Source: Candidatus Woesebacteria bacterium (GTDB lineage: Bacteria > Patescibacteriota > Microgenomatia > UBA1400 > PJMF01). Taken from it: 64,000 nucleotides of DNA. The position numbers and the translations under genes were made by a program. Each line of letters begins with the position of its first letter. Within the stretch, counting starts at the first letter, position 1. The notes beneath the pieces were generated by a model. The model had not been told where the DNA came from. It searched no databases and saw only the letters and a list, made by a program, of their open reading frames with translations. The stretch spans positions 553 through 64,552 of the forward strand of contig JAGOOB010000001.1 of the NCBI GenBank assembly GCA_017992725.1, in the 5' to 3' direction. Shown here in pieces: positions 5,076-52,430 of this stretch.

Positions 5076-5891
5076 GTGAGCTCAAACTCCAAATTAATTA
5101 TCAATGAAGTCTTTCCCAATCCAGACACTGGTAGTGAGTGGATAGAAATTTACTATGTGGGCGAAAATCCAGTGTTGGCGAGTGACTACATTAACTTTAG
5201 TATTAGTGATGATAAGCGGATAATTTATACCTTTCAAGGTGATGAGGTTTGGTCGGATAATTTTTTAGTAGTTGCAGTTGCTGGCCTTAATAATGATCAG
5301 GACAGTGTCATTCTCAAAAATGCTGAAGAGCTGGTGATCGACCAAATGAGCTACACACTCAGTCAAAAAAATTTAAGTTGGTTAAGAATAAATGAGCAAG
5401 AATCAAACTTTATTTTAGGAGAAGCCAGCCCCCTCCAATTTAACAATATTCCGCCTAGCGCAACCCCCAGTCCAAATTCTACTCTTTCACCCTTGCCAAG
5501 CCCTTCACTAACTAGTCCTAGCCCGCATCCTAATCCCGATGTCATTAACACACCCACTCCCACACCTAGTCCTATAGATCTGGCACAAAATAATAATACT
5601 AACCAAGTAGAAACTAAACCTGATAAAAAACAAAATTATCACCAATTGTCCCCAGAAGAATTAGCTCAAAATTATTTTAACAACTACCAAGATTATCATA
5701 ATCTGCAGATCACTTACTCACAAGAAAAACAATTTCCTCAAACGCGCCTAGTATTTCTTGGTCAAAAAATGCTCAAACCAGCAATTATCGATGCTATAAT
5801 AGGAAGTTCTTTACTGGTTCTAGCAGCAATTTTATTAAGTTATGATAACAAAACCAAAAAGGAAAAAGAGCGCTTTTCTTCTTTATTTTAG
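5076..5891 (+). CDS. Lamin-tail-domain (LTD) protein with a Pro/Ser/Thr-rich linker and a C-terminal TM anchor
   Basis: The N-terminus (LIINEVFPNPDTGSEWIEIYYVG) matches the LTD signature. A PSATPSPNSTLSPLPSPS low-complexity linker follows, then a C-terminal hydrophobic helix. The GTG start at 5076 is the only start codon after the upstream in-frame stop. Confidence 0.6.
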   Translation: MSSNSKLIINEVFPNPDTGSEWIEIYYVGENPVLASDYINFSISDDKRIIYTFQGDEVWSDNFLVVAVAGLNNDQDSVILKNAEELVIDQMSYTLSQKNLSWLRINEQESNFILGEASPLQFNNIPPSATPSPNSTLSPLPSPSLTSPSPHPNPDVINTPTPTPSPIDLAQNNNTNQVETKPDKKQNYHQLSPEELAQNYFNNYQDYHNLQITYSQEKQFPQTRLVFLGQKMLKPAIIDAIIGSSLLVLAAILLSYDNKTKKEKERFSSLF

Positions 5892-31086: not shown

Positions 31087-34000
31087 TTAGTCCTCGATTT
31101 CTATTTTTTCATTTTCTCCTACCACCGCTTCTGTAGCTAAATCCTCATCAGCATCGAGTTCATCTTCATCAACGTCTTCTTCTTCTAAATCGAGTTCTTC
31201 TGTTTCTTCTTTCTCAATATCAACTTCTTCATCATCATCTTGCTTTTCACCTTCAGTCTCTAAATCTTCTAAAATTAATATGTCTTCAGCAGCCTCATCT
31301 TTTTTCTCTTCATCATTAGTTTGCAAAACTTCATCTAGTGGATCAATATCCAATACTAAAGAATTTAATTCTTTACACAGAACCTTAAATGATTCAGGAA
31401 CAGTTGGTGCAGGAATTTCTTCTCCTTTAACAATGGCCTCAAAGGCTTTAGCTCTACCCCTAACATCATCTGACTTGATTGTTAGCATTTCTTGTAGAAC
31501 ATGAGCCGCTCGATGCGCTTCTAACGCCCAAACTTCCATTTCTCCCATTCGCTGACCGCCCATTTGCGCTTTACCACCCAAAGGTTGTTGGGTAACTAAA
31601 GAATAAGGACCAGTAGAACGAGCGTGAGTTTTATCTTCAACCATGTGACTCAATTTCAAAATATAGTTAATTCCTACCACTGATTTCTCATTGTAAGCTT
31701 CACCGGTTAAACCATCATACAGTTGAGTTTTACCAGAAACTGGCAAACCAGCTTTTTCCAATTCCTGCCAAATCTTATCTTCATCAAATTCTTCAAAAGC
31801 TGGGACTGCGACTCGATAGCCCAATTTATCAGCCGCCCAACCCAAATGAGTTTCCAATAACTGCCCTAAGTTCATACGCGCCAGAACCGAGAGAGGAGAA
31901 ATAATAATGTCCACTGGAGTACCGTCCTCTAAATGAGGCATATCTGCTTGAGGAACAATTTTGGAGATCACTCCCTTATTACCGTGACGGCCGGCTAATT
32001 TATCGCCAACCACAATTTTTCTTAATTGAGCAATTTTAACTATCACTTCCTTAATTGTTCCCGGATCCAATTCATCACCCAAATCACGATCTAAAATTTG
32101 GACATCAATCACTGTCCCTTCTCCTCCGTGAGGCATACGCAATGAAGTATCTCGGATTTCTTTTGATTTCTCACCAAAAATAGCCCTTAATAAACGTTCT
32201 TCTGGTGAAAGTTCAGTTTCTCCTTTGGGAGCTACTTTTCCTACTAAAATGTCACCAGATTTAACATGGCTACCTATTTGGATAATACCATCAGTATTTA
32301 AGTTAGCCAAAAAAGTTTCACTGACATTGGGAATGTCATTAGTTAATTCTTCAGGACCTAAGCGAGTGTCCATCACTTTGGCTTTGTGTTCACTGATTTG
32401 AATAGAACTTAAAGTATCTTGTTGCACTAAACGATCAGAAATCACAATAGCGTCTTCATAACCCAAACCTTTAAAACAAGTATAGGCAATTAACAGATTG
32501 GTACCTAAAGCTAATTCTCCATGATCAGTAGCTGGACCATCAATTAAAACATCACCTTTTTTAATCTTATCTCCCACTTGCACTTCTGGAGTTTGATTAT
32601 AACAAGTACTTTGAGAGGTACGAGCAAATTTATTTAACTTGTAAGTTAAATTACCTTGCTGATAACTCACTCGCTCATTGTTAGCAGTCTCCACCCAAGC
32701 TTTGGCTTTTTCTTGATACTTGGCATCAACTTTTAATACCACTTCGCTAGCATCAACATAAAGGACTTCACCAGGAAATTCTGCTAAAACTGTCCAACCC
32801 ATCGCCGTCGCTATCTCTTTTTCCATACCAGTGCCCACAATTGGTGCTTGAGTTTTAACAAGAGGCACTGCTTGACATTGCATGTGTGAACCCATCAAAG
32901 CACGGTTAGCTTCATCATGAGCAACAAAAGGAATCAGCGAGGCACTACAACCAACCACTTGACGTGGCACCACATCAATGTATTGAACCTTTTGTACCGA
33001 ACCTTCAATAAATTGATTGTTATAGCGCATTGGCACCCAATCCTGAGTAATATAACCCTTATCATCAATGTCAACTCCAGCGTGAGTAATGTAATAATCT
33101 TCCTCTTCATCAGCACTCAAGTAAACTATTTCATCAGTCACTTTCATCTTACCTCGATAATTAATTACCTTAGCGTAAGGTGCTTCTAAAAATCCATATT
33201 TATTAACTCTGGTATAAAGAGCTAAGTAAGTCACCAAACCGATGTTTGGACCCTCTGGAGAACGAATTGGACAAATTCTTGAATATTGTGACGCATTAAT
33301 ATCACGCATTGAAAAAGAAGCACGATCTCTGGTCACACCACCAGTACCCATCACTGACAAACGGCGCAGATTATCAATTTCTGATAAGGGATTAGTTTGA
33401 TCAAGAATGGTAGATAAACGATTACGACGGAAAAATTCAGCAATAGAGGCAATCAGTGGTCGAGCATTAACCAGAGCTGAGGGAGTTAATACTTCATCAG
33501 TTTTGGTCAATGACATTTTCTCACGAATAGATCTTTCTAAACGAATTAAACCAATACGAAAAGCACTGATTGAAACTAATTCTCCAACTTGGCGTACGCG
33601 ACGATTAGAAAGATGATCAATATCATCAACTTTACCCTCGCCGTTTTGTAATTTAATTAAATATTTGATACTAGCCAAAACATCTTCTTTAGCCAAAACA
33701 GTTAATTTTTCATCTAGTTTGATCCCTAAGCGACGATTCATTTTATAACGACCTACTTCACCCAAATCATAGCGACGAGGATCAAAAAACATATTTTTCA
33801 AAAACTCACGAGCTGTTTCTAAAACCGCTGGTTCACCTGGACGCATTTTTTCGTAGATTTCGATTAAAGCCTCAGCTTGACTAGTAGTTGAATCTTTACG
33901 TAAAGTGTTGTTAATTAAATCTAGTTCGTCATTTTTTAAAACTTCAGCTAAAGCTTCTGCGATATCATCATTAGTTTCCCAACCCAAAGCGCGAAGCAGC

Positions 34001-34575
34001 ACGGTAGCCGGCATCTTGCGTCGACGATCAATTTTAATGGTTAAAACATGACGACGACTAACATTAATCTCTAACCAAGAACCACGCATTGGCCTCAGCT
34101 CAGCTTTATAAAGCAATTCTTTGGTGTTTTGATCTTCCTCACCAGAAAAGAAAACGCCCGGTGATCTAACCAATTGAGTAACAATGCCTCTTTCGATACC
34201 ATTGATAATAAAGGTACCGGTATTGGTCATGGCCGGAATATCACCCAAAAAGACTTCTTGAGTTCTTTCCTCACCAGTCTTTTTGTTTAATAAAGTCGCC
34301 TCAACATATAGGGGTTGATCGTAAGAAACATTTTTGGTCTTTGCTTCTGTGGGTGTATATTTTGCCGGACCAAAACGATAGTCACCAAATTTCAGTGACC
34401 AGTTTTTTCCAGTGAAATCTTCAATACCTCGTTCTCCATTAATCTCCTTTAAAGATTCTCTGATCCCATTGTTTAAAAAATCTTGATAACTATTAATTTG
34501 CAGGGCAACTAGATCCAATTCTGGTAGGATTGAATGTTCTTGTCCCCAATTTTGGCGATTGCTGGTTTGTGGCAT
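31087..34575 (-). CDS. rpoB: DNA-directed RNA polymerase subunit beta, with a ~75-aa highly acidic C-terminal tail
   Basis: 1162 aa with rpoB conserved blocks ([27 protein letters not shown]). The C-terminus is a D/E-rich low-complexity region. Confidence 0.95.
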
Positions 34576-34847: not shown

Positions 34848-35837
34848 TTAGCGCAAGTATTGATTTACATTAGCGTTGTGACCTTCAATCGTGTCTGCCG
34901 TGTGAATTTGGTCGGCAAGATCGTGGATATAGTATAAGGCAGTCGTTGACTGAGGATGAAGAACTGCCTTAATCGCTGCTAAGCCAGGATTACATATTGG
35001 CTGAGGTGGCAATCCTGGATTTTGGTAAGTATTAAATGCTGAAGCTAAATTTTTGTCTGCAGCTACTGGATTTGACCACCACGTTTGCTCAGCAACACTA
35101 TAACCCTTAACATATTGCAAGGTCGCATCAACTTGCAGTGGCATATTAATTTCCAAACGATTGAATAAAATACCAGCTATTAGTGGCATATCTTGCTCAT
35201 TAGCACTCTCTCTTTGAACTAGAGAGGCAAGAGTCAAAATTTGATTCAAGTCTAATTGACTGCTAGCTAAATCTTCAGCTAGAGCAGTTAATACCTTGCT
35301 TTCAAAGGTATTAACTAATAGATTCACAATGCTGGCAGTAGTACTCGCTTTTGGCACTAGATAAGTGTCGGGGAACAATTGTCCTTCCAAGCCATCGGTC
35401 AACACCAAAAATTCTTGTTCATCAAATTCACTAAGGTCTTGTTTAACTAAACTAGCAGCTATTTCTTCACGCCGCCATCCCTCAGGTATCGTAATCCATA
35501 AATCATCGGTGCCTTTGGTCAATACTTGGGTTAATTCACTAACTGACATGCTCGGACTCAATTTAAAAGAACCTGCCTGAATACTAGTTTGCTTACCCTG
35601 TTGATAAAGGGCGAGACGAAAAGCTAAAGGAGACCGAATCAAACCTTCAGCTTTGAGGCGTTGAGCAATGTTTTGCGTTGCTTCACCCTTGGGAATAATA
35701 AAAGTGACAGTACTTTGATCACTGCTATTTGGAGCTTGTAATAACGAAATAAAAATTGCCCATCCAGAGATAACAATAATTACAAAAATTAGTAAGAAAT
35801 AAAAGAATGAACGTGGTTTTTTTGGAGAATTTTTCAT
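34848..35837 (-). CDS. mltG: Endolytic murein transglycosylase MltG (YceG-like)
   Basis: N-terminal TM anchor, then a YceG-like domain with a PEGW...EI block and a C-terminal YNTYQNPGLPPQPICNPG motif. Confidence 0.8.
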   Translation of the reverse strand: MKNSPKKPRSFFYFLLIFVIIVISGWAIFISLLQAPNSSDQSTVTFIIPKGEATQNIAQRLKAEGLIRSPLAFRLALYQQGKQTSIQAGSFKLSPSMSVSELTQVLTKGTDDLWITIPEGWRREEIAASLVKQDLSEFDEQEFLVLTDGLEGQLFPDTYLVPKASTTASIVNLLVNTFESKVLTALAEDLASSQLDLNQILTLASLVQRESANEQDMPLIAGILFNRLEINMPLQVDATLQYVKGYSVAEQTWWSNPVAADKNLASAFNTYQNPGLPPQPICNPGLAAIKAVLHPQSTTALYYIHDLADQIHTADTIEGHNANVNQYLR

Positions 35838-35850
35838 TGAGGGGCTTAGT

Positions 35851-36252
35851 CTAACATAAATCTAAGTAGTTTTCGAGAATAATGGCTGCTGCATAGTGGT
35901 CTATTGCCTGGCGTCTTTTCTTTTTTGGCAATTCTTTCAACCTCTGCTCAACTTCATATGAAGATAAAACTTCATCAACTAAAATAACATCCAAATTGAA
36001 CGTTGATTGTAAAATCTCAAAAAATTCTAAGATTTTTTTTGCCATTGCCTGTTCTGAAATACCCAAAACAATTTTGTCAACTTTTTCAGCTTTTACTATT
36101 TGCTTAATTTCTGCTAAAGCTTGAGAACCAATAATGGGCTCATTACTCGTCACATCATTGTTGATGATTGTCAGTGGCTCAGCCAAACCCACGTAGGAAA
36201 TCGCTAAACCAATTCGAGCTAAACCATAGTCAATTGCTAAAATTGTTGACAT
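35851..36252 (-). CDS. ruvX: Putative pre-16S rRNA nuclease / Holliday-junction-resolvase-like YqgF/RuvX
   Basis: MSTILAIDYGLARIGLAIS N-terminus (RNase H-like DxG) in a 133-aa protein. The conserved neighbourhood with mltG and alaS supports the call. Confidence 0.8.
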   Translation of the reverse strand: MSTILAIDYGLARIGLAISYVGLAEPLTIINNDVTSNEPIIGSQALAEIKQIVKAEKVDKIVLGISEQAMAKKILEFFEILQSTFNLDVILVDEVLSSYEVEQRLKELPKKKRRQAIDHYAAAIILENYLDLC

Positions 36253-36261
36253 GTTCTTAAT

Positions 36262-37221
36262 TTATTCTTTGACTAACTGGGCAGTAATCACTCCTCGACG
36301 CAAGGTAGTTCCTTCTGGAACGCAGGTCACTAATTTTAATTGACGAACGTCAACTCGTTGAGCAAGAATAAAAGTGTCATCGGCTTTGACTTCAGTTTTG
36401 CCTTGAACAACATAGGTATATTTGACGTTGTCATAGGTTAAATATATTTTGTCACCTTTTTCCAGAGTCATTATTTTACTAAAAATTGAATTGTAACGGC
36501 GAGGATTGTTTTCACTTGGATTATAAAATTGACGCAAAACCGAATGACCAAATATCACTGGAGCACCCAACTGTCCAGGCATTCCAGTTCCAGGATAATG
36601 AATTAAACTTTGATTAAGATCACTTCCACCAACTCGAACCTTGGCATTACTAATCCCTAAACGAGGAATGTCTAGCGTATATTCAATAAACTCGCTTGTG
36701 CTTAATTCTACGTTTTCTAGATCGTCACTAAACCAATTAGTTAGGTCTGTAAAATCAAGATCCTGATCTAAAATCACTGGTTCAGTTTCAACACTGTAAT
36801 CGGTAGTGCTATTTTCTACTATTTCAGTTTGAGCTTGAGCGGAAATTAATGGATTGCCCAACAGTAATTGCGAATTAGGTATTGGAGATAATAAAGTAAT
36901 TTCTTCTTCTTTTTTCCATGGTAAATAATAATCAATAATGGGCCAAAGCGCAGATAAAGCTAACGCCAAGCCAAAAACTATTAATGCCAATGGCAAAAAA
37001 GTTGCCCCCACTCTCACTATTTTGGGTAAGCGGCCCCAAAAATTTAACTGGATTTGCTCATCTAAATTTTTTTCGCCCTGCTGACTGGCTTTATCTTGTT
37101 TCAAAAAGTAATTAACTTTTTTATTCAAGTCTTGTATAGGCACTCCATCTCTTAGTGCTTGGCGATAAAGTTTTAACAACTGTTTTTTTTGTTTGGTCAG
37201 TTGCGGATTTGTTTTAGCCAT
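36262..37221 (-). CDS. Sortase family transpeptidase (membrane anchored)
   Basis: N-terminal TM segment. Catalytic-type motifs: His in PVIFGHS, the Cys motif LVTCVP, and a C-terminal Arg (TLRRG). Confidence 0.7.
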   Translation of the reverse strand: MAKTNPQLTKQKKQLLKLYRQALRDGVPIQDLNKKVNYFLKQDKASQQGEKNLDEQIQLNFWGRLPKIVRVGATFLPLALIVFGLALALSALWPIIDYYLPWKKEEEITLLSPIPNSQLLLGNPLISAQAQTEIVENSTTDYSVETEPVILDQDLDFTDLTNWFSDDLENVELSTSEFIEYTLDIPRLGISNAKVRVGGSDLNQSLIHYPGTGMPGQLGAPVIFGHSVLRQFYNPSENNPRRYNSIFSKIMTLEKGDKIYLTYDNVKYTYVVQGKTEVKADDTFILAQRVDVRQLKLVTCVPEGTTLRRGVITAQLVKE

Positions 37222-37222
37222 A

Positions 37223-39475
37223 TTAATTAATGATGAAATTGAAACGGCTGGAATCTTTTGGTAATTTTTGCAATACTCGACCCATAAAAGCAGGTTGTAA
37301 AATTATTTCAGCCCGATCAATAGTTTCTTGTTCTTCTAAATTATTTTTGGCCTCTTCTAAACTTTTACCCAAAACTAGATCGTTTAATGCTTCTTGGTTA
37401 ATCTTCGCCTTAGCCTTGGCTGATAATTCAGCATCTAGAACTAAACGGTTGCTACCATCGGTCATAAGCTGAGGTTCATCGCTAAGTAAAGATGGTTCTT
37501 CATCTACAAATTCATAATTTTCCGGCAAATCTAACAATAAGACTTCTTCCGCCAATTGCTTTAAATCACTGGATGAGTATTTAACTGCTTCAACTGCCAA
37601 GGTCATTGTTAATGATAAAGTTTCTACCTCATCCCCTTCTTCATGATCGTAAGCAAAATCTACTATCCGACTCTCGCCAGTCGGCACGTAATAAACTCCG
37701 TCTTTGGACTCCTCTTTAAATTCCTTTACAGCAATCGCATACAAATTTTCTTTCAACTGATTCTGTAAATTGTCTAAATCTTTTTGAGAAACCACTCTAA
37801 TTTCCCGACTTGAGCCACCAGAAAAATCTTCAATGGCTGTAGCAGAGTAAGTATTTTCACTAAAATCAGCTACCGCTAACTTACTATCCTTGCCAATATT
37901 TCCTTCCGCCCCAATGTCTTGAGCGGTCAGCGCCACTTCAACACTACCATAATTAATATTCTGCCCATCGTCTTCTTCTTCGGAAACGGCAGCGGGGACT
38001 GTCACTTCTTCATTTAGAACAAAGGCAATGTCTTCATATTTAAAGATCGTGTTTGCTGAAAAAGTTTTATCCGTAAAAGTTTTATTAAATAATTTTACTT
38101 TGCCCTGTGCTTTATCTCCAACCAAACTGATCCCTGTAGTACTCAAGGTGTCTTCACCTTTAATTTCCTTTTCTTCTAACGAGACTTTCAATAAATTTTT
38201 AGTAAAATCCGATTCAGCCAATTGAGGATCTAAAATAATTTCTAAATTTTTTTGCAATATTCTTTCATTAGCCGTCACTTTGACTGTAACATCAGACAAA
38301 AACAAATTATAGACGAAAAATAGTGTGATCAAAGCCAACAAGCCTCCTCCCACACCGATCAGTAAAGATTTTTTATTTTTTTTGAAAAAACGTTTCAAAA
38401 CGCTACTGCTTTTACTTTTTATTTTTTTCTGATCTTGACTGTTCACAGAAGATAAATCAACAGCTTGAAGATTGTCATTAGTTATTTCTTCAGCTTGACT
38501 TTTGGCCAATGGAGTTTGCTGGTGAAGAGCTTGCTCTAAATCAATTTTCTCTGAACTTAAATCAATACCAAAACTGCTAATCTTTTTTTCTGCACTTACT
38601 AGTTCGGGCCCATTACTAGCCACATCCTGATCAGAGATATCTTTATTATCTGTACTGGTCATTTCACTAAATTCTTGAGTTAATTTTGAGGCAAAATTTT
38701 TGGACAACATGTAGCTAGCAGCCAAACTTAAGGATTTAATTAAAAAATCATTGCTTAGAACAACAAATTCTGGCATTTGTAAAAAACCTGACAATGTAGT
38801 CCAGTCAAAAGCCTGCAGTTCTGCCTGCTCTTTGTTTAACACTTTTTGGGGCAAATTTAATGAGGAAAGAAAAACCTTGTTAGGAAAATACTTGCCTTGC
38901 TCGCCTAACTCTTGACTAATTCTGGCTAAACCTTCCTGTAAATCGTCACTAAGTCTAGCGGAGCGGCCAATTTTCAAATTCGCCAGTAATTTTCCGTGTT
39001 TGATTAACAGTAAATCAAAATCTTTGTCACGTAAATAAAGAACAATCGAAGAATCATGAGGATCTTTCATAATTCTAGCTTGATGGATACCTTCTGAAAT
39101 ACTCATTTGTCCCAGAGGCAACAAACTTAAATTATCTGTTAAATCTTTAACTATCACTTTTTTGCTATCCTGTAAATCACCCTTCTCCAGCCAAGTTTCA
39201 TCAAAGACAAAAACACAGTCAGCTACTTCATCCGCCAAAGGACCTAAATCTTGTAAAGCTTGATCAAGTTGTGTTAATAAATCTTGGCGATCAAAATAAG
39301 TTTTAATTGCGGAATATTCTTTAATTTCTTGATTTTTGCTAACCAAAGCAGCTTGCAGTTCCTGATCGCTGAGAATGATGGTAATAAATAACTCAGTTTC
39401 CATCAGCTCTCCTACCGGCATTTTGGTCTCTTGCTCTTTTTTGCCTTTGATAATCTTTTTTAGTAAATTGGGCAT
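37223..39475 (-). CDS. Large hypothetical bitopic membrane protein (750 aa): ~350-aa cytoplasmic N-domain, one TM helix, ~380-aa acidic extracytoplasmic domain
   Basis: TM helix LLIGVGGGLLALITLFFVYNLFL sits mid-protein. No motif was recognised with confidence; the N-domain has a weak actin-like/PilM-like flavour but lacks a clear phosphate-binding DxG. There is no C-terminal sorting signal. Confidence 0.5.
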   Translation of the reverse strand: MPNLLKKIIKGKKEQETKMPVGELMETELFITIILSDQELQAALVSKNQEIKEYSAIKTYFDRQDLLTQLDQALQDLGPLADEVADCVFVFDETWLEKGDLQDSKKVIVKDLTDNLSLLPLGQMSISEGIHQARIMKDPHDSSIVLYLRDKDFDLLLIKHGKLLANLKIGRSARLSDDLQEGLARISQELGEQGKYFPNKVFLSSLNLPQKVLNKEQAELQAFDWTTLSGFLQMPEFVVLSNDFLIKSLSLAASYMLSKNFASKLTQEFSEMTSTDNKDISDQDVASNGPELVSAEKKISSFGIDLSSEKIDLEQALHQQTPLAKSQAEEITNDNLQAVDLSSVNSQDQKKIKSKSSSVLKRFFKKNKKSLLIGVGGGLLALITLFFVYNLFLSDVTVKVTANERILQKNLEIILDPQLAESDFTKNLLKVSLEEKEIKGEDTLSTTGISLVGDKAQGKVKLFNKTFTDKTFSANTIFKYEDIAFVLNEEVTVPAAVSEEEDDGQNINYGSVEVALTAQDIGAEGNIGKDSKLAVADFSENTYSATAIEDFSGGSSREIRVVSQKDLDNLQNQLKENLYAIAVKEFKEESKDGVYYVPTGESRIVDFAYDHEEGDEVETLSLTMTLAVEAVKYSSSDLKQLAEEVLLLDLPENYEFVDEEPSLLSDEPQLMTDGSNRLVLDAELSAKAKAKINQEALNDLVLGKSLEEAKNNLEEQETIDRAEIILQPAFMGRVLQKLPKDSSRFNFIIN

Positions 39476-39561: not shown

Positions 39562-41469
39562 TTATTCAGCTCGGAAACGCATATAAATTCTGCGTACACC
39601 TTGCGAGACGGCTTTTTCCTTAAAAATTTCCAAATCGCCAAAGCGAGCAATTTGACCAGTACTTGCGACGTGAGGACCGCCACAAAGTTCTTTAGATATC
39701 CAGTGATCAGGATCGCCAATGGTATAAACACTAACTTGATCGGGATAACGTTCAATAAAAAAAGCAATCGCTCCAGACTTGAGAGCCTCTTCCTTAGAGA
39801 GAATTTCATGCGATACCGGCAGATCTTCTTGCAACCACTGATTAACTAATTGTTCAACTGTTACCAACTCCTCTTTATTCAATGCTCGAGTATAACTAAA
39901 ATCAAAGCGTAAACGTTCACTATTAATGTTAGAACCTTTTTGCTGAACTTGATCGCCCAACACCTTTCTCAAAGCCGCTTGCAGTAGATGAGTGGCCGTG
40001 TGAAAAGCTGTTGTCTTGGCCTCATGATCAGCCAAACCACCTTTAAATCTGTCCTTAGCAGTTTGTCTAGATAAAGCAGCGTGCTGTTGATTGGCTTCAG
40101 CAATCTTACTGTCAATAGCTGGCTCAATGCTAATATTTCTTGTTTTAGCTTCTTCGATGGACAATTCAAACGGGAAACCATAGCTTTCATAAAGTGTAAA
40201 AACCAAATCGGCAGTCAATTGATCTTTATTACTAATTAAACGATTAAACTCTTTCAGACCACGTTTGAGCGTTTTGTTAAACTTTTGTTCTTCATTTTTT
40301 AAAACTTCATTAATATGTTCAGTTTTGGATTCCACTTGTGGATAAAAATCTTGATATAGATCAACTATTGCTGGGACCAGATCTGGCAAAAATTCTTGTT
40401 CTAAACCTAAATATTTGGCCTGTCTAAGCGATCGGCGAATTAAACGCCGCAAAAGATAACCTTGTTCCTTATTACTTGGCAAAACACCATCAGCAATTAG
40501 CATGACACTAGCCTTAAGATGATCAGCAATGATACGAAATGCAGCTCGTAAATCTGGATCTTGATAGTTTTTTTGACTAATTTCCTCTAATTTTTTAATA
40601 ATTCCACTAAAAGCACTGCTTTGAAAAACATCAACTTGACCTTCTAGTACAGTTAATAAACGCTCCAAACCTCCACCGAAATCAATATTTTTTTGGGCTA
40701 ATTCACGAAAGCCAGTTGCTGTCCGTTGGTATTGCATAAATACGCTGTTACCAACTTCCAAAAAGCGACCGCAATCACAATTAATGTGACATGGTTCTTG
40801 AGCAAACTTAGATTGTTGATGAAACTGCTGGGCTTGATCTGGCGCGAAATCATAAAAAACCTCACTATCAGGACCACCAGGTTCACCAAGTGGCATCGTC
40901 GCTGGCACCCCAGATCTTGACCACCAATTTTTTTCTTCACCATAAAAGAAAATTCTACCTCCTTGTAAGCCAGCTTGTGGCTGATCAACAATTTTTGCTT
41001 CAATGCCTCTTTTTTGGAACAAATCTTGCCAAATGAGCGCACTTTCTTCGTCTTTGGGAATATTTAAAGCCTTGTTGCCAGCAAAAACCGATACATAAAG
41101 TCGAGAGGGGTCCAGTTGCAAAACATCAACTAAAAATTCAAAAAAGAAGGTAATTTGCTCTTGCTTAAAATAATCACCAAAAGACCAATTGCCCAACATT
41201 TCAAAAAACGTCGTGTGACGATTGTCTCCAACTTTATCTATATCTTCACTACGGAAACATTTTTGTGAATTAGCGATTCTTTGACCCTGTGGGTGTTTTT
41301 CCCCAAGTAAATAAGGAATCATCGCTTGCATTCCAGCACTTGTAAACAAAGTACTAGGATCATTTTCTGGTACTAAATTTGCCGAAGGCACTATTGCATG
41401 CCCTCTCTTAGCAAAATAATCTAAATATAAACGACGGAGACTAGATAAAGTTAGAGTATTACTAGACAT
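39562..41469 (-). CDS. alaS: Alanine--tRNA ligase, short form (catalytic, tRNA-recognition and editing domains; no C-Ala domain)
   Basis: Class II core (FTSAGMQAMIPYLLG, FFEMLGNWSFGDYFK) and editing-domain motifs HTATHLL and CGGPHV. It is 635 aa against about 870 for canonical AlaS. Confidence 0.85.
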   Translation of the reverse strand: MSSNTLTLSSLRRLYLDYFAKRGHAIVPSANLVPENDPSTLFTSAGMQAMIPYLLGEKHPQGQRIANSQKCFRSEDIDKVGDNRHTTFFEMLGNWSFGDYFKQEQITFFFEFLVDVLQLDPSRLYVSVFAGNKALNIPKDEESALIWQDLFQKRGIEAKIVDQPQAGLQGGRIFFYGEEKNWWSRSGVPATMPLGEPGGPDSEVFYDFAPDQAQQFHQQSKFAQEPCHINCDCGRFLEVGNSVFMQYQRTATGFRELAQKNIDFGGGLERLLTVLEGQVDVFQSSAFSGIIKKLEEISQKNYQDPDLRAAFRIIADHLKASVMLIADGVLPSNKEQGYLLRRLIRRSLRQAKYLGLEQEFLPDLVPAIVDLYQDFYPQVESKTEHINEVLKNEEQKFNKTLKRGLKEFNRLISNKDQLTADLVFTLYESYGFPFELSIEEAKTRNISIEPAIDSKIAEANQQHAALSRQTAKDRFKGGLADHEAKTTAFHTATHLLQAALRKVLGDQVQQKGSNINSERLRFDFSYTRALNKEELVTVEQLVNQWLQEDLPVSHEILSKEEALKSGAIAFFIERYPDQVSVYTIGDPDHWISKELCGGPHVASTGQIARFGDLEIFKEKAVSQGVRRIYMRFRAE

Positions 41470-41490: not shown

Positions 41491-41847
41491 CTAAATACCT
41501 TTGAATTGATTCTTCTTTCGTTGACGCCGAATACGCTTATGAATGTTTTCTTTCTCTTTTGATTGCTCTAATTTAACCAAGGCTAAACTGAGATTGTCTT
41601 TAAAGTCTAATAGAGAATTTTTTAAATGCCAAAGATATTTATCTTTAACTTCATCCAAAGTAACGTCTGGACTCTCGATTAAACCCTGCTCATATAAATC
41701 TACCCGAGCTTTTTCCCACTCATTAGCTAATTTCTCCCAAGTTTTCTTGCCATTTTCGCTAGAAAAGTAACTGATTAAAGCTCCTAGGGAAAAGCCAATG
41801 GTCAAACCAAATAAAAAATTGCTACCTTGTTGCTTATTTTCATCCAT
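41491..41847 (-). CDS. Small N-terminally anchored membrane protein (YtxH-like / general-stress-type), hypothetical
   Basis: N-terminal TM helix (FLFGLTIGFSLGALISYF), then a charged helical region with a basic C-terminus. Confidence 0.5.
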   Translation of the reverse strand: MDENKQQGSNFLFGLTIGFSLGALISYFSSENGKKTWEKLANEWEKARVDLYEQGLIESPDVTLDEVKDKYLWHLKNSLLDFKDNLSLALVKLEQSKEKENIHKRIRRQRKKNQFKGI

Positions 41848-41850
41848 AAA

Positions 41851-42186
41851 CTATTTTTTCTTTTGACCAGCTGATTTGTCTTTGGCAACTTCAGTGCCAT
41901 GACCTTTATCCCGATTTAACCAATTCATAAAACCCTCGGTAATCTTTAGACCCGCTGTAAAATTGGTAATAAAAGCGCCAAGGCTGTGAAATGGATTAAG
42001 AATACCCTCAATTTTTTCCTGGGTAGTATCAATAACTTGATTGGCCTTATCGATCGCTAAATTAAATTTTTCCAAAGATTGTTTGACTTGCCCCAAAACC
42101 AAAATTAATTTGACGGCCAAAACTACTAAAACCACGGTCAAACTAGCCACAGAAATGGTAAGAACTAAAGGTAAAATATCTGACAT
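41851..42186 (-). CDS. DUF948-like membrane protein (N-terminal TM plus coiled coil)
   Basis: MSDILPLVLTISVASLTVVLVVLAVKLILVLGQVK then a helical region; typical of DUF948. Confidence 0.55.
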   Translation of the reverse strand: MSDILPLVLTISVASLTVVLVVLAVKLILVLGQVKQSLEKFNLAIDKANQVIDTTQEKIEGILNPFHSLGAFITNFTAGLKITEGFMNWLNRDKGHGTEVAKDKSAGQKKK

Positions 42187-42257
42187 AATTCATTCTCCTT
42201 TTTATAAGCTCATTCTACGATAGACTACAAGAATTTACCAGCCAGACTAAACAAAAG

Positions 42258-42914
42258 TTAAAATTTGACCTGAATACTTCTTTGCACCGTACTGGTTTTA
42301 CCTCGCTGATCGGTGGCCCTGACCGTAATCGTGGTTGGTCCTTCAATATCAAAGTACAATTCTGTGCTAAAAAAACCACCTGCCTGCAAAGCCACAGGTT
42401 GAGCATTCACTAGCACGATAGCATCCATCACTGTTTGCCCCTCAACTAGCACCTTAGCTGCTGTCGTTTGATTATTTTCTGGCTGAAAAACTTCTAAGCG
42501 TGGTGGTCGACTAAGAGCATACCATTGCCAACCGGTATAAATCAGAAAGCTGACAAAAATCACCACAATCAAGGAAAAAGTTAAACGAATTGGTGAAAAA
42601 AAATTAGATTTTTTAAATGAATCCTTCAAAAATTCACGAGGAAGTAAGCTGCCTTTGGCACTTTCCTGATAATCACGACGCAAAATTGCCAAAAGTGGAC
42701 GTGGATTCAGACCAAGTAGTTTGGCATAATTGCTAATGTAAGCTTTAGCGTAACTAGCATTAGGTAAATTAGCAAAATTATTATTTTCAATCGCCTGTAA
42801 ATATTCAATTTTAATGAAAGTTTGTTGAGCGATATCAGATAATTCTAAGCCAGCTTTTTTTCGATGTTTACTTAACAAATCACCTACTGTTTGGGTTTTC
42901 ACCGTTTGATTCAT
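42258..42914 (-). CDS. RodZ-like protein: N-terminal XRE-type HTH, one TM helix, C-terminal beta-rich domain
   Basis: HTH (TVGDLLSKHRKKAGLELSDIAQQTFIKIEYLQAIENNNF), a basic juxtamembrane region, a TM helix (LTFSLIVVIFVSFLIYTGW) and a C-terminal DUF4115-like domain. Confidence 0.6.
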   Translation of the reverse strand: MNQTVKTQTVGDLLSKHRKKAGLELSDIAQQTFIKIEYLQAIENNNFANLPNASYAKAYISNYAKLLGLNPRPLLAILRRDYQESAKGSLLPREFLKDSFKKSNFFSPIRLTFSLIVVIFVSFLIYTGWQWYALSRPPRLEVFQPENNQTTAAKVLVEGQTVMDAIVLVNAQPVALQAGGFFSTELYFDIEGPTTITVRATDQRGKTSTVQRSIQVKF

Positions 42915-42960: not shown

Positions 42961-43395
42961 TTATTTGTTCAACAATTTTTTGAGAGTGCTCGCAATTCTG
43001 GATCCATCAGCTTTAGAACCCAGCGCCTGGGTAAGCTTACCCATTAATGGACCAAAATCTTTAACCGCACTTTGTTCAACAAAATCTTGAATGAATTTTT
43101 CTAGCTCTTGGTCGCTCATTTGTTCTGGCAAATATGATTGTAAAATCTTCACTATACTTTCTGTTTCGTTAATTAAATCTTCACGAGCAGCCTTCTTAAA
43201 ATCTTCTAGAGCATCTAATTGCTGATTCAACATTTTCTTGATAATTTTTACCACCGCTGCATCATCGGCCACCCCATGATCTATTTCAAAATTTTTCACT
43301 TCACTGCGAATTAAACGAATCACACCAAGACGCTCAGCATCTCTAGCCCTCATAGCTGTTTTCATATCTTCCATTAATTGTTCTTGTAAGTTCAT
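42961..43395 (-). CDS. yqeY: GatB/YqeY-domain protein
   Basis: MNLQEQLMEDMKTAMRARD ... the YqeY family. The start was moved to the ATG at 43395 (AGGAG RBS); the 18 upstream codons in the track overlap tRNA-Val. Confidence 0.8.
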   Translation of the reverse strand: MNLQEQLMEDMKTAMRARDAERLGVIRLIRSEVKNFEIDHGVADDAAVVKIIKKMLNQQLDALEDFKKAAREDLINETESIVKILQSYLPEQMSDQELEKFIQDFVEQSAVKDFGPLMGKLTQALGSKADGSRIASTLKKLLNK

Positions 43396-43413
43396 ATTTC
43401 TCCTTTTTATTAG

Positions 43414-43490
43414 TGGTGGACAATACTGGACTCGAACCAGTGACCTCACGAATGTGAATCGTGCGCTCTAACCAACTGAGCTAATTGTCC
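43414..43490 (-). tRNA. tRNA-Val (anticodon CAC), CCA encoded
   Basis: The minus strand reads GGACAAT TA GCTC AGTTGGTTA GAGC G CACGA TTCACAT TCGTG AGGTC ACTGG TTCGAGT CCAGT ATTGTCC A CCA. It is 77 nt with all stems perfect. Confidence 0.85.
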
Positions 43491-44750: not shown

Positions 44751-46133
44751 TTAAAGCTCTATATCTAAGCAATGGTGCTTTTGACAAATGTTATTTTCTA
44801 AAGATTCTTTTATTTTTAACTCATCACTTGAATAAGCTTGGTTCATAATAAAAAAAACATTTCTACTGGCTAAGCTCAATAATTCATTCTGCAAGTTTTG
44901 ATTTTGTGAACTATCTCTTTCAATTAAGTAAACGGAAGAATTATTTTTATTAATTAATAGGTAATAACTAATTAAATCAACGTCATCCATAAGTAGCACA
45001 ATGCTGTTTGATGGAATTTTTTGTTTAATTGTATTTTGAATATTTTCCCTAAATAAAAAGCCATAGTTATTAAAAGAATTAATCGCCAAGATTAATAAAG
45101 TTATCATCATAAAAAACTCATAACGCAATTTTTGATGAAATTGGGCAAAAACGAATACAACCAATAAACTAAATAACACTAATTGTCTGGCTAAAAAAAC
45201 TGGAAAAAATAAAATCGAGATAATAGTCGCCAAACCAATTGTGCCCGTAGACGAAAAAAATAAAAATTGATTAATTAACGATTTGTCTTTCTTTAAATTA
45301 GTTGTAATTATTACCAAAAATAGCGGAAAATAAAAACCAACGAAGTCATGACCAAACAATAATTTTGTTTGATATACAAACCAATTTAAATCAAAATAAG
45401 GTACACTTCCAGCAATAGCATTACCATTTTTAATGGGTAACAAATAATTTAACAAAATACAAATTTGATAAATAGAGCAAACAAAAAATAAAAACAAACT
45501 GCAAAATATATTTTTACTATGCATCTTTTCTTTTTTAAAAAACAAGAAAATAGCCAAAAAAAACAGTGAAAAAATTAACCAAATAACTCCATAACTAATA
45601 AAAAAACAGATACTTAATAAGAAGCCAATTAAAATAGTTTTATAAACTTTTGGGTAAAAAAAGTTAGAAAAAATGACATAAATTAACAAAAGCATCAAAA
45701 AAATTAATAAAGCATAAGGTCGAACTTGAAAAGACAAATTAATTAATAATGGATGTAGAGAAAATAAACTTATTGCTAAATAACTAGTCTTACGACTTTT
45801 GAAAAATAAACTAATTCTATAAACTAAGTAAATGCTTGGAAAAAACCAAATCAGACTGGTCAAACGTAACCACCAATCCGCATGCCCAATTATTAACATT
45901 AATTTTAAATAAATATAATATAGAGGTGGATGCCTAAAATCGGAAAAATTCCCATTCGAAAAAAATAATTCCCTCCAGCTTAAGTCTGTTGAATTAAAAT
46001 AGGAAATTGCTTCATCATTCCAAAAATCAGTGGTCAATCCATAATAAAAACGAATAATTAACCCAATTAAAAAACTAATTACAGCAATAATTAGCCATCT
46101 ATTTCGACTTACCGATAACCGCATTCTCCCCAT
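44751..46133 (-). CDS. GT-C fold membrane glycosyltransferase (GT39/GT83-like, PMT/ArnT family)
   Basis: 460 aa, about 11-12 TM helices, with a DE motif in the first extracytoplasmic loop (FWNDEAISY) typical of the PMT/ArnT family. Very AT-rich codon usage. Confidence 0.6.
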   Translation of the reverse strand: MGRMRLSVSRNRWLIIAVISFLIGLIIRFYYGLTTDFWNDEAISYFNSTDLSWRELFFSNGNFSDFRHPPLYYIYLKLMLIIGHADWWLRLTSLIWFFPSIYLVYRISLFFKSRKTSYLAISLFSLHPLLINLSFQVRPYALLIFLMLLLIYVIFSNFFYPKVYKTILIGFLLSICFFISYGVIWLIFSLFFLAIFLFFKKEKMHSKNIFCSLFLFFVCSIYQICILLNYLLPIKNGNAIAGSVPYFDLNWFVYQTKLLFGHDFVGFYFPLFLVIITTNLKKDKSLINQFLFFSSTGTIGLATIISILFFPVFLARQLVLFSLLVVFVFAQFHQKLRYEFFMMITLLILAINSFNNYGFLFRENIQNTIKQKIPSNSIVLLMDDVDLISYYLLINKNNSSVYLIERDSSQNQNLQNELLSLASRNVFFIMNQAYSSDELKIKESLENNICQKHHCLDIEL

Positions 46134-51911: not shown

Positions 51912-52430
51912 TTAAGATTGTTTTGCCCTAAGCGTCAAGCCTAAACCGATACTTAACATCGCAACAGCTAAAAATAACAAACTAACGGTGGTAGAACCAG
52001 CATTAGGCAGGGTAGTGGTGCTAGTTGTAGCAACAGTTTCAAGATTGCCACTGGCAGTACTACTGTTACCAATTGTTAACACAAAATCTAAAGTCTCTGT
52101 TGCTGTAGATAAATCAAATTGATGCTCTCCTTCACTTAAAGACGAGATTAGCGTACTCCAACTACCCTCCTCATCTGCAGTCGCCGTTCTAGTTAAGTCA
52201 TCAATAGTAATTGAAATAACGGCCGAGGGTGAAGCTAAACCAGTTAAGGCAAAAGTCCCCCCAGAATAATTATATTCCTTCAAACTCCCACCCAAATCTA
52301 AATTAGAAACATCCATGGTACCTATGGCTGTAATTTGCAGCGCGGCCGCCCTTACTTTACTACTAAAAAAGAGTGGGAAAATAATCAATAAAGAGATAAG
52401 ACAAATTACAATTTTTTTCATATTTCTCAT
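51912..52430 (-). CDS. Secreted, cell-wall-sorted protein with an LPNAG sorting signal (sortase substrate)
   Basis: N-terminal signal peptide and S/T-rich body. The C-terminal LPNAG, hydrophobic stretch (VSLLFLAVAMLSIGLGLTL) and RAKQS form a classic tripartite sorting signal. Confidence 0.7.
   Translation of the reverse strand: MRNMKKIVICLISLLIIFPLFFSSKVRAAALQITAIGTMDVSNLDLGGSLKEYNYSGGTFALTGLASPSAVISITIDDLTRTATADEEGSWSTLISSLSEGEHQFDLSTATETLDFVLTIGNSSTASGNLETVATTSTTTLPNAGSTTVSLLFLAVAMLSIGLGLTLRAKQS

Follow-up and report, generated by a model that had tools for sequence, protein, structure and literature searches.

The stretch of DNA analysed here, referred to as the window, comprises 64,000 nucleotides of contig JAGOOB010000001.1 (positions 553 to 64,552; assembly GCA_017992725.1) from a Candidatus Woesebacteria bacterium. 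Its minus strand carries the genes alaS, BIG, sortase, ruvX, mltG and rpoBC in this order, where BIG designates a 750-residue bitopic membrane protein (37223–39475, minus strand) that was characterized from its open reading frame (ORF), its homologues, an AlphaFold2 (AF2) model and fold searches. The following gene (36262–37221, minus strand) encodes a membrane-anchored sortase of 319 residues (Pfam Sortase, E = 8.5e-20). The conserved upstream neighbour of the pair is alaS, here in a short form of 635 residues (39562–41469, minus strand; Pfam tRNA-synt_2c, E = 5.6e-121). The conserved downstream neighbours are ruvX/yqgF (35851–36252, minus strand; RuvX, E = 8.8e-27) and mltG/yceG, which encodes an endolytic transglycosylase (34848–35837, minus strand; YceG, E = 4.6e-75); rpoB and rpoC come after mltG. 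The identity of every flanking gene is backed by both Pfam and NCBIfam. The intergenic gaps are 86 nt between alaS and BIG, 1 nt between BIG and the sortase gene, 9 nt between the sortase gene and ruvX, and 13 nt between ruvX and mltG. No convincing terminator was found between the genes of this string, and the promoter and terminator scans performed at chance level. The G+C content of the BIG and sortase genes (0.31–0.40) is the same as that of their flanks. An initial annotation of this DNA had called a sortase gene and a 750-codon ORF between alaS and ruvX, and the calls and their coordinates were confirmed by ORF calling, Pfam and NCBIfam.

Conservation of the BIG–sortase gene pair

A word-indexed search with BIG returned 45 relatives, with full-length homologues down to ~21–24% identity, and an exhaustive profile search returned 12,867 representatives of 50%-identity clusters at E ≤ 1e-3 (5,105 at E ≤ 1e-30). 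The best 150 profile matches are 614–825 residues long (nearly all 687–825), and nearly all of them span almost the full profile. Homologues this divergent and this numerous indicate that the genes are real and not chance ORFs. The close relatives in named genome records belong to metagenome-assembled genomes from the Candidate Phyla Radiation (abbreviated CPR) labelled Candidatus Pacebacteria, Paceibacterota or Parcubacteria group, and their records include a complete genome of 853 kb (CP011212.1); NCBI places Pacebacteria in Minisyncoccota, that is, Patescibacteria/CPR. The breadth of the family past Pacebacteria-like and Saccharibacteria records was judged from record labels and family size only. 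An identical BIG gene is present in the metagenome contig Ga0255347_1000360. The alignments used below are designated A1 (the most diverse BIG-family alignment), A2 (a closer set, also used for the locus search in genome records), A3 (a Saccharibacteria family described below) and A4 (also used for the locus search in metagenomes).

A set of 112 retrieved loci was annotated by means of jackhmmer profiles built on genes of the window, and it contained 96 non-redundant loci of the fused type, in which BIG carries its own actin-like domain. Among these, the sortase gene is the next gene after BIG in 90 of the 90 loci having a 3′ flank, with a median gap of ~3 nt, and two apparent breaks of the pairing proved to be overlaps of ORF starts. 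Linkage to the outer neighbours is high, with ruvX following the sortase gene in 71/79 loci and alaS lying directly upstream of BIG in 63/73, and the pair remains intact in loci from which alaS or ruvX has moved off (for example L053, L055, L048, L049, L079, and L092). The pairing is kept down to ~24–27% identity of BIG and 56–58% identity of RpoB. In this CPR/Patescibacteria lineage, BIG and its sortase make up an invariable module of two genes, and theirs is the tightest linkage in the gene string.

Since the order is kept at deep divergence, the arrangement is ancestral for a deep lineage and not a local insertion. The initial annotation had described the two genes as inserted into a conserved alaS–ruvX–mltG neighbourhood, and had itself named an ancestral order, seen by comparing synteny in relatives, as what would overturn that view. 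The same order was found in all related loci examined, with a homologous part in the same slot in Saccharibacteria, so the insertion view does not hold for the CPR lineage of the window. Recent insertion or horizontal acquisition of the pair is likewise ruled out by its host-like composition and by synteny. In one distant locus (L029:12270–14472), the type IV pilus genes pilB (MshEN and T2SSE domains) and pilC (T2SSF) are found ~3 kb downstream of the module, in the place usually taken by mltG and rpoB.

Architecture of BIG and its cytoplasmic domain

Along the BIG polypeptide, an N-terminal peptide is followed by an FtsA/PilM-like actin fold, by a disordered linker that contains a short motif, by a transmembrane (TM) helix and by an ectodomain. 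The AF2 model, built with 30 homologues, has a mean predicted local distance difference test score (pLDDT) of 79.9, with residues 27–258 and 395–750 ordered and residues 1–26 and the linker (260–358) disordered. A hydropathy scan revealed a single TM helix at residues ~369–392 (38300–38371, minus strand), which is preceded by a Lys-rich stretch and is part of a long helix (360–392) in the model. The isoelectric point is 4.9 for the N-terminal 258 residues and 4.3 for the C-terminal 358 residues, which contain 71 Asp and Glu versus 36 Lys and Arg. BIG is therefore bitopic with the N terminus inside, and the layout proposed in the initial annotation (about 350 cytoplasmic residues, a TM segment and about 380 acidic extracellular residues) is borne out.

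Residues 27–258 (38702–39397, minus strand) form the actin-like domain, which has an ASKHA (acetate and sugar kinases/Hsc70/actin) fold with PilM and FtsA as its nearest relatives. In fold searches with this domain, PilM and FtsA ranked above EutJ (14.2) and above sugar kinases, actin-related proteins (Arps) and Hsp70s (≤13.8); Foldseek returned generic ASKHA matches only. The domain is detected by no sequence hidden Markov model (HMM) of Pfam or NCBIfam, including PF14450, PF11104, TIGR01174, and TIGR01175, and a search of PDB sequences with the family profile gave no actin-like match but only a weak match to TRI-2. In the absence of an HMM-to-sequence match, the assignment rests on structure and on profile–profile comparison. 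In the latter (hhalign), a 41-member BIG-family profile matched an FtsA-like family of Saccharibacteria with 95.3% probability (E = 2e-8, residues 1–248), and a smaller BIG-family profile did so with 68%.

In the hhalign alignment, the FtsA-like motifs DIGT, DVGGGTTD, and LCGGGS face FITIILSD, VLYLRDKDFD, and VFLSSLNL of BIG, respectively. All 28 aligned members having the N-domain lack a canonical DxG, DxGGGT or GGG at the positions for phosphate-1, phosphate-2 and adenosine; distant family members retain a single Gly at phosphate-2 (IKIGETD). The residues of the FtsA-like 1C region face gaps, and the BIG domain has only ~230 residues. The N-domain is a stripped-down FtsA/PilM-type actin fold devoid of the nucleotide-binding motifs and the 1C subdomain. 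Given the loss of both, its most probable role is that of a binding module that works independently of nucleotides, and not that of an ATPase. The suggestion of a degenerate actin-like or PilM-like fold, offered as speculation in the initial annotation, thereby gains support from the fold searches and the profile match, together with the absence of the ATP motifs.

Two short segments outside the folded domain are conserved. The N-terminal peptide MPNLLKK (residues 1–7; 39455–39475, minus strand) is conserved across the family with the consensus M/L-P-N/x-L-F (alignments A4 and A5), and hhalign places it opposite LPNL/KLPK, a stretch of the Saccharibacteria FtsA-like paralog that comes before its actin fold. 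The linker motif SSFGI (residues 300–304; 38564–38578, minus strand) conforms to a conserved pattern of a hydrophobic residue, Gly and [FIV]. Its Gly303 is invariant in A1, which includes the Saccharibacteria protein P0045 (IGEL), and is conserved at ≥90% in A4. The motif is aligned by hhalign to HRSIGELA, whose corresponding Gly is invariant in A3, and its region has a pLDDT of 30–41 in the AF2 model.

A divided counterpart in Saccharibacteria

P0045 (593 residues), a distant match to BIG, is derived from Saccharibacteria and founds family A3. Alignment of A1 with A3 by hhalign gave 100% probability (E = 5.8e-57). The aligned stretch begins at the end of the cytoplasmic domain and covers the linker motif, the TM helix and the ectodomain in full, as well as the LP..R motif at the C terminus. 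In three Saccharibacteria loci (L030–L032) the gene order is alaS, (x), an FtsA-like gene, a baseplate J-like (BpJ-like) gene, ruvX, mltG, LysM/CHAP and obg, and the FtsA-like and BpJ-like genes overlap by 4 nt. No sortase gene is present in this string in any of the three loci (3/3); in Saccharibacteria the sortase is encoded elsewhere in the genome.

The FtsA-like genes (L030:4676–6004, L031:6691–8004, and L032:6694–8004) encode proteins of 436–442 residues in which DIGT, DVGGGTTD, and CGGGS are intact and the 1C region is present. The best NCBIfam model is ftsA (TIGR01174, E = 3e-36, below its cut-off), versus 1e-10 for pilM. All organism-named records among the 120 best relatives of this protein are Saccharibacteria or Patescibacteria. 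The paralog is 76–85% identical among these 120 relatives, and its BpJ-like membrane partner only ~50–69%; the names given to the paralog are inconsistent across sources and include FtsA, PilM, EutA and rod shape-determining protein.

The actin fold is fused to the membrane protein in one lineage and encoded immediately upstream of it, with a 4-nt overlap, in the other, which suggests that the two parts work together. A plain fusion of the two Saccharibacteria genes would not give BIG, since the membrane protein there has its own cytoplasmic domain, a small and different one (SpoIIAA-like), in place of the actin fold.

The ectodomain is a baseplate wedge homologue

The acidic ectodomain (residues 396–750; 37226–38290, minus strand) is collinear with the baseplate J/gp47/TRI-2 wedge proteins of phages and tailocins. 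Pfam Baseplate_J (PF04865) matches BIG itself with 16.0 bits (E = 0.0078), below the gathering threshold of 21.1 bits; among 41 diverse relatives it matches 24 with E ≤ 0.01 (the lowest E being 1e-6), and relatives above the threshold include P0052 (28.7 bits) and P0043 (21.3 bits). Diffocin TRI-2 was weakly found in the PDB with the BIG-family profile. With Foldseek, 336 columns of the ectodomain were aligned to the 346-residue TRI-2, and 320–440 columns to many phage models named "Baseplate J-like". The fold is collinear with the solved wedge proteins TRI-2, Mu gp47, and A-1(L) gp31. These near-full alignment lengths indicate that the whole ectodomain, and not one barrel alone, corresponds to a wedge protein; the TM-scores are low because the domains differ in orientation. 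We conclude that the homology of the ectodomain to baseplate J/gp47, a wedge protein found in contractile tails, extends from end to end.

The initial annotation had found no recognizable family for BIG. This has to be revised, since the ectodomain is baseplate J/gp47-like, the family is very large, and one relative is already named [quoted passage not shown] by NCBI. The phage name is, however, functionally misleading for BIG, because no other tail genes accompany it and it is a membrane-anchored cellular protein. None of the 112 loci contains tail genes, and in the window the neighbours are alaS, the sortase gene, ruvX, mltG and rpoBC.

Within the ectodomain, the Lys-rich motif VGDKAKGKV is conserved with Lys455 nearly invariant, and the Pro of the C-terminal LP...R motif is invariant. 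The latter motif was considered as a sorting signal and rejected, as no hydrophobic segment or charged tail follows it and it forms a folded strand with a pLDDT of 82–86.

The sortase and a candidate substrate

The sortase scores 71.2 bits against Pfam PF04203 (cut-off 26.6). It reaches none of the NCBIfam class cut-offs (140–165 bits), the best scores being 39.9 and 38.1 for class D, 36.7 for class E and 34.2 for class C. The protein is composed of a basic cytoplasmic tail, a TM helix (~68–95), an acidic linker and the catalytic domain (183–317). The catalytic His (FGHS), Cys (LKLVTC), and Arg (LRRG) are conserved over 87 unique orthologues; to judge from these motifs, the His-Cys-Arg centre is intact and active-looking. 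Over the same 87 orthologues, two further motifs are conserved: L..LYR.AL (residues 15–23) in the cytoplasmic tail before the TM helix, and lDytnL.NWF (residues 155–164) on the extracellular side before the catalytic domain. The tail motif is a candidate docking peptide.

A secreted Ig-like protein of 172 residues (51912–52430, minus strand), which has a signal peptide, an Ig-like body and a tail made up of TTLPNAG, a TM segment and RAKQS, is a likely substrate of the sortase on the strength of this layout. It has no Pfam match, and its gene is not adjacent to that of the sortase. The TTLPNAG tail suggests an LPxAG-type sorting motif for the lineage. Another protein, with a lamin-tail domain (5076–5891, plus strand), has a linker rich in Pro, Ser and Thr, and KTKKEKE comes after its C-terminal TM helix; no obvious LPxTG-like motif precedes the TM helix.

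The corresponding genes in Southlakia epibionticum

Published data on Southlakia epibionticum ML1 (Wang et al., 2023; PMC10633639, Tables S1/S2) include a cluster of SEML1_0657 (alaS), 0656, 0655, 0654 (RuvX), 0653 (MltG) and 0652 (LysM). SEML1_0655 is named "baseplate J/gp47 family protein", and both 0655 and 0656 are flagged as "core family" and "Patescibacteria enriched" (PMC10633639). We take SEML1_0655 to be a member of family A3 because its gene order, length and name agree, not on the basis of its sequence. Transposon sequencing (Tn-seq) in that study gave HMM calls at P0/P1/P2 (NE, non-essential; ES, essential; GD, growth defect). The calls are NE/ES/ES for SEML1_0655, with normalized reads falling from 373 to 34 and 24, NE/NE/GD for the FtsA/PilM-like SEML1_0656, NE/NE/NE for MltG and NE/ES/ES for RuvX (PMC10633639). 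The depletion of SEML1_0655 mutants could include polar effects on ruvX. The gene at the position of BIG, equated by synteny, length and name, is important for growth on the host.

According to the DPAM analysis in the same source, SEML1_0655 is made up of an N-domain that resembles SpoIIAA, then a beta-barrel, a G3P-like domain and a "gp6 C-terminal domain III" (PMC10633639). A canonical FtsA adjoins FtsZ (SEML1_0174/0175), and a canonical PilM has a PilN-like neighbour (SEML1_0104/0105) (PMC10633639); SEML1_0656 is consequently a third, dedicated actin-like paralog. A long, core, CPR-enriched sortase, SEML1_0327, was called GD/ES/ES (PMC10633639). The word "baseplate" is absent from the main text of that paper, and our search of the CPR/Saccharibacteria literature for baseplate J/gp47 found no paper that discusses the BIG family; it is listed only in the supplementary tables of PMC10633639.

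Neighbouring genes

Upstream of alaS lie YtxH-like, DUF948-like, and RodZ-like (HTH_25 and Glucodextran_B) genes and, further up, ftsK and the gene for RNase J. The YtxH-like, DUF948-like, and RodZ-like genes (41491–42914, minus strand) accompany the module in most related loci, and the conserved block extends to rodZ–duf948–ytxH–alaS–BIG–sortase–ruvX–mltG–rpoB. The alanyl-tRNA synthetase (39562–41469, minus strand) has NF002436 (PRK01584, a 595-position profile) as its best NCBIfam model and matches only positions 2–433 of the 847-position TIGR00344 model. A polytopic PMT_2-type glycosyltransferase of 460 residues (44751–46133, minus strand) is encoded between ftsK and the rodZ block in the window and its closest relatives only. 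RpoB (31087–34575, minus strand) has an unusually long, acidic C-terminal tail of ~100 residues rich in Asp and Glu. An ORF of 162 residues (42961–43490, minus strand) is YqeY-like by the Pfam call on the equivalent L001 gene; its listed GTG start lies within tRNA-Val(CAC) (43414–43490), so the true start must be downstream.

Possible function of BIG

Tentatively, we regard BIG as a scaffold that spans the envelope and acts together with the sortase on the wall or surface of the cell. The ectodomains of such a scaffold would oligomerize on the external side of the membrane. In tails, proteins of the baseplate J type associate with one another into rings, and for this reason the BIG ectodomains may form an oligomeric platform. 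On the cytoplasmic side, the actin-like domain and linear motifs would dock partners, which may be BIG itself, FtsA-type proteins or the sortase tail; LPNLF at the N terminus, SFG[IF] in the linker and LYRxAL in the sortase tail are candidate docking peptides. The two sides could be coupled across the membrane on the model of PilM–PilN (in which PilM binds the N terminus of PilN), of GspL (which binds GspE) or of FtsA–FtsN. The scaffold would thereby position the sortase, and possibly the neighbouring MltG, and the positioned sortase would attach LPxAG-type surface proteins to the wall at defined sites.

Several points weigh against this scaffold. The proposed physical or functional link between BIG and the sortase is argued from adjacency alone, and in Saccharibacteria the family persists with no sortase next to it. 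In the monomer model, the linker motif and the N-terminal peptide were docked without confidence (pLDDT 30–56). Oligomerization of the ectodomain would follow solely from the behaviour of baseplate J in phage tails, and BIG itself falls below the Pfam Baseplate_J cut-off (16.0 vs 21.1 bits). Finally, alaS, ruvX and rpoBC are not envelope genes, and the co-location may reflect housekeeping co-expression only.

A bolder proposal, to which we give a rather low probability, is that the BIG-type protein is the core of an unrecognized CPR-wide envelope machine, in which a surface ring or lattice of domesticated wedge domains, coupled to an FtsA-type module, would organize sortase-dependent assembly and possibly host-contact structures. 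If this were true, the machine would represent a cellular exaptation, or the ancestor, of the contractile-tail baseplate wedge, and it might build the cell–cell contact structures that episymbionts need to grow on their hosts.

The main rival to the scaffold is an accessory factor of the divisome or elongasome. BIG would then be an FtsA-family membrane tether joining FtsZ/FtsA or RodZ/MreB-type cytoskeletal elements to the remodelling of extracellular peptidoglycan (MltG, the LysM/CHAP hydrolase), and the sortase a co-expressed passenger. We consider this unlikely, though it deserves attention: the N-domain shares homology with an FtsA-like family, for which ftsA (TIGR01174, 3e-36) rather than pilM (1e-10) is the best NCBIfam model, and the partner in Saccharibacteria is an FtsA-like gene, not a sortase. 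The BIG family also adjoins mltG in both phyla, with LysM/CHAP in addition in Saccharibacteria, and ftsK, rodZ-like, and YtxH/DUF948-like genes travel upstream. However, the order alaS–ruvX–mltG is probably also present in bacteria that have no BIG-type protein. The adjacency to mltG may therefore be an inherited position only. The sortase is linked to BIG more tightly (90/90) than ruvX (71/79) or alaS (63/73). In Southlakia, moreover, MltG is dispensable (NE/NE/NE) but SEML1_0655 is not, and a canonical FtsA–FtsZ pair is encoded elsewhere.

There is a smaller chance that BIG belongs to an alignment subcomplex of a pilus or secretion system, as a fused PilM–PilN or GspL-like component of a type IV pilus-like or other trans-envelope machine, or forms the base of a sortase-assembled appendage. 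GspL and PilM–N fusions consist of an actin-like domain, a TM helix and an outer domain, and BIG has this layout; its ectodomain, however, is baseplate J-like and does not have the ferredoxin-like fold of PilN, PilO, GspL or GspM, and the nucleotide-binding motifs used by PilM are missing. The proximity of pilB and pilC (~3 kb downstream) is seen in the distant locus L029, but neither the neighbourhood of BIG in the window nor any other locus contains pil or gsp genes. The Prokka name of the Southlakia neighbour, "pilus assembly protein PilM", favours such a complex, but that organism has a separate canonical PilM with its PilN-like neighbour (SEML1_0104/0105).

BIG might instead be an acceptor or substrate of the sortase, that is, a membrane-anchored base that receives LPxAG proteins through a conserved Lys or is itself processed. 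The gene pairing is invariant, and suitable residues exist in the nearly invariant Lys455 of VGDKAKGKV and the invariant Pro of the C-terminal LP...R motif, but we find this improbable: BIG has no C-terminal sorting signal, its LP segment being a structured strand (pLDDT 82–86), and no recognizable pilin motif, and the Saccharibacteria homologues retain these residues where no sortase is adjacent. Lastly, a prophage or tailocin baseplate remnant, or a phage-related decoy with no structural role in the cell, is strongly disfavoured and very improbable, for although Baseplate_J is the sole family signal at the sequence level and the best structural matches outside ASKHA are phage or tailocin wedge proteins, no other tail genes lie nearby, the composition is host-like, its place in the gene order is constant across >90 divergent loci and also in a second phylum, BIG is membrane-anchored and fused to an actin-like domain, and the family is core and CPR-enriched with its mutants depleted in Southlakia.

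Comparison with known systems

The closest counterparts of BIG are SEML1_0655 and 0656 of Southlakia, identified by order, length and name, which share the slot between alaS and ruvX–mltG and the association with an FtsA-type actin fold. BIG has the slot and the linker–TM–ectodomain homology of an unnamed CPR "core" family that would include SEML1_0655. The two forms differ in that the actin-like protein of Saccharibacteria is separate, with intact motifs and no adjacent sortase, while that of BIG is fused, degenerate and shortened, and a sortase is always next to it.

From baseplate J, gp47, P2 gpJ, and diffocin TRI-2 (PF04865), BIG differs by its TM anchor, its cytoplasmic domain and its location in a housekeeping operon. 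Genes for gp25/gpW, gp48/gpI, the tube, the sheath and the spike are all missing near BIG; its gene context is not that of a baseplate J gene. BIG resembles transmembrane couplers of the PilM–PilN, GspL and FtsA types but belongs to none of them. PilM–PilN and GspL have a ferredoxin-like outer domain, whereas that of BIG is baseplate-like, and no genes for a pilus or secretion ATPase or platform are adjacent. Compared with FtsA, BIG lacks the SHS2/1C subdomain and the ATP motifs, has a true TM helix instead of an amphipathic C-terminal helix, and is not encoded beside ftsZ. Like the membrane-anchored housekeeping sortases of classes A and E, the window sortase has a His-Cys-Arg domain and is held in the membrane by an N-terminal anchor, and the genome encodes a candidate substrate of the LPxAG type. 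It differs from them in reaching no NCBIfam class cut-off (best 39.9 vs 140) and in its long conserved cytoplasmic tail, its acidic stalk and its obligate pairing with BIG.

The individual folds are known, and databases already name the family, albeit misleadingly. Within the literature searched, four features seem to be without precedent: a degenerate FtsA/PilM-like domain in fused form, an entire ectodomain that is a surface-displayed wedge homologue, an obligate sortase partner with a conserved cytoplasmic motif, and the tie between an FtsA-type actin fold and a BIG-type protein in both phyla, either fused or just upstream. A large part of bacterial diversity belongs to CPR/Patescibacteria, whose conserved, lineage-specific genes are mostly without a known function. 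The N-terminal FtsA/PilM-like domain, the obligate sortase with its cytoplasmic motif and the surface wedge homologue are three handles on function that turn a "hypothetical protein" into specific experiments on localization, interaction and sortase substrates. Even if the scaffold proposed here is wrong, the label "phage baseplate", which misleads when given to a core gene of the cell, is corrected.

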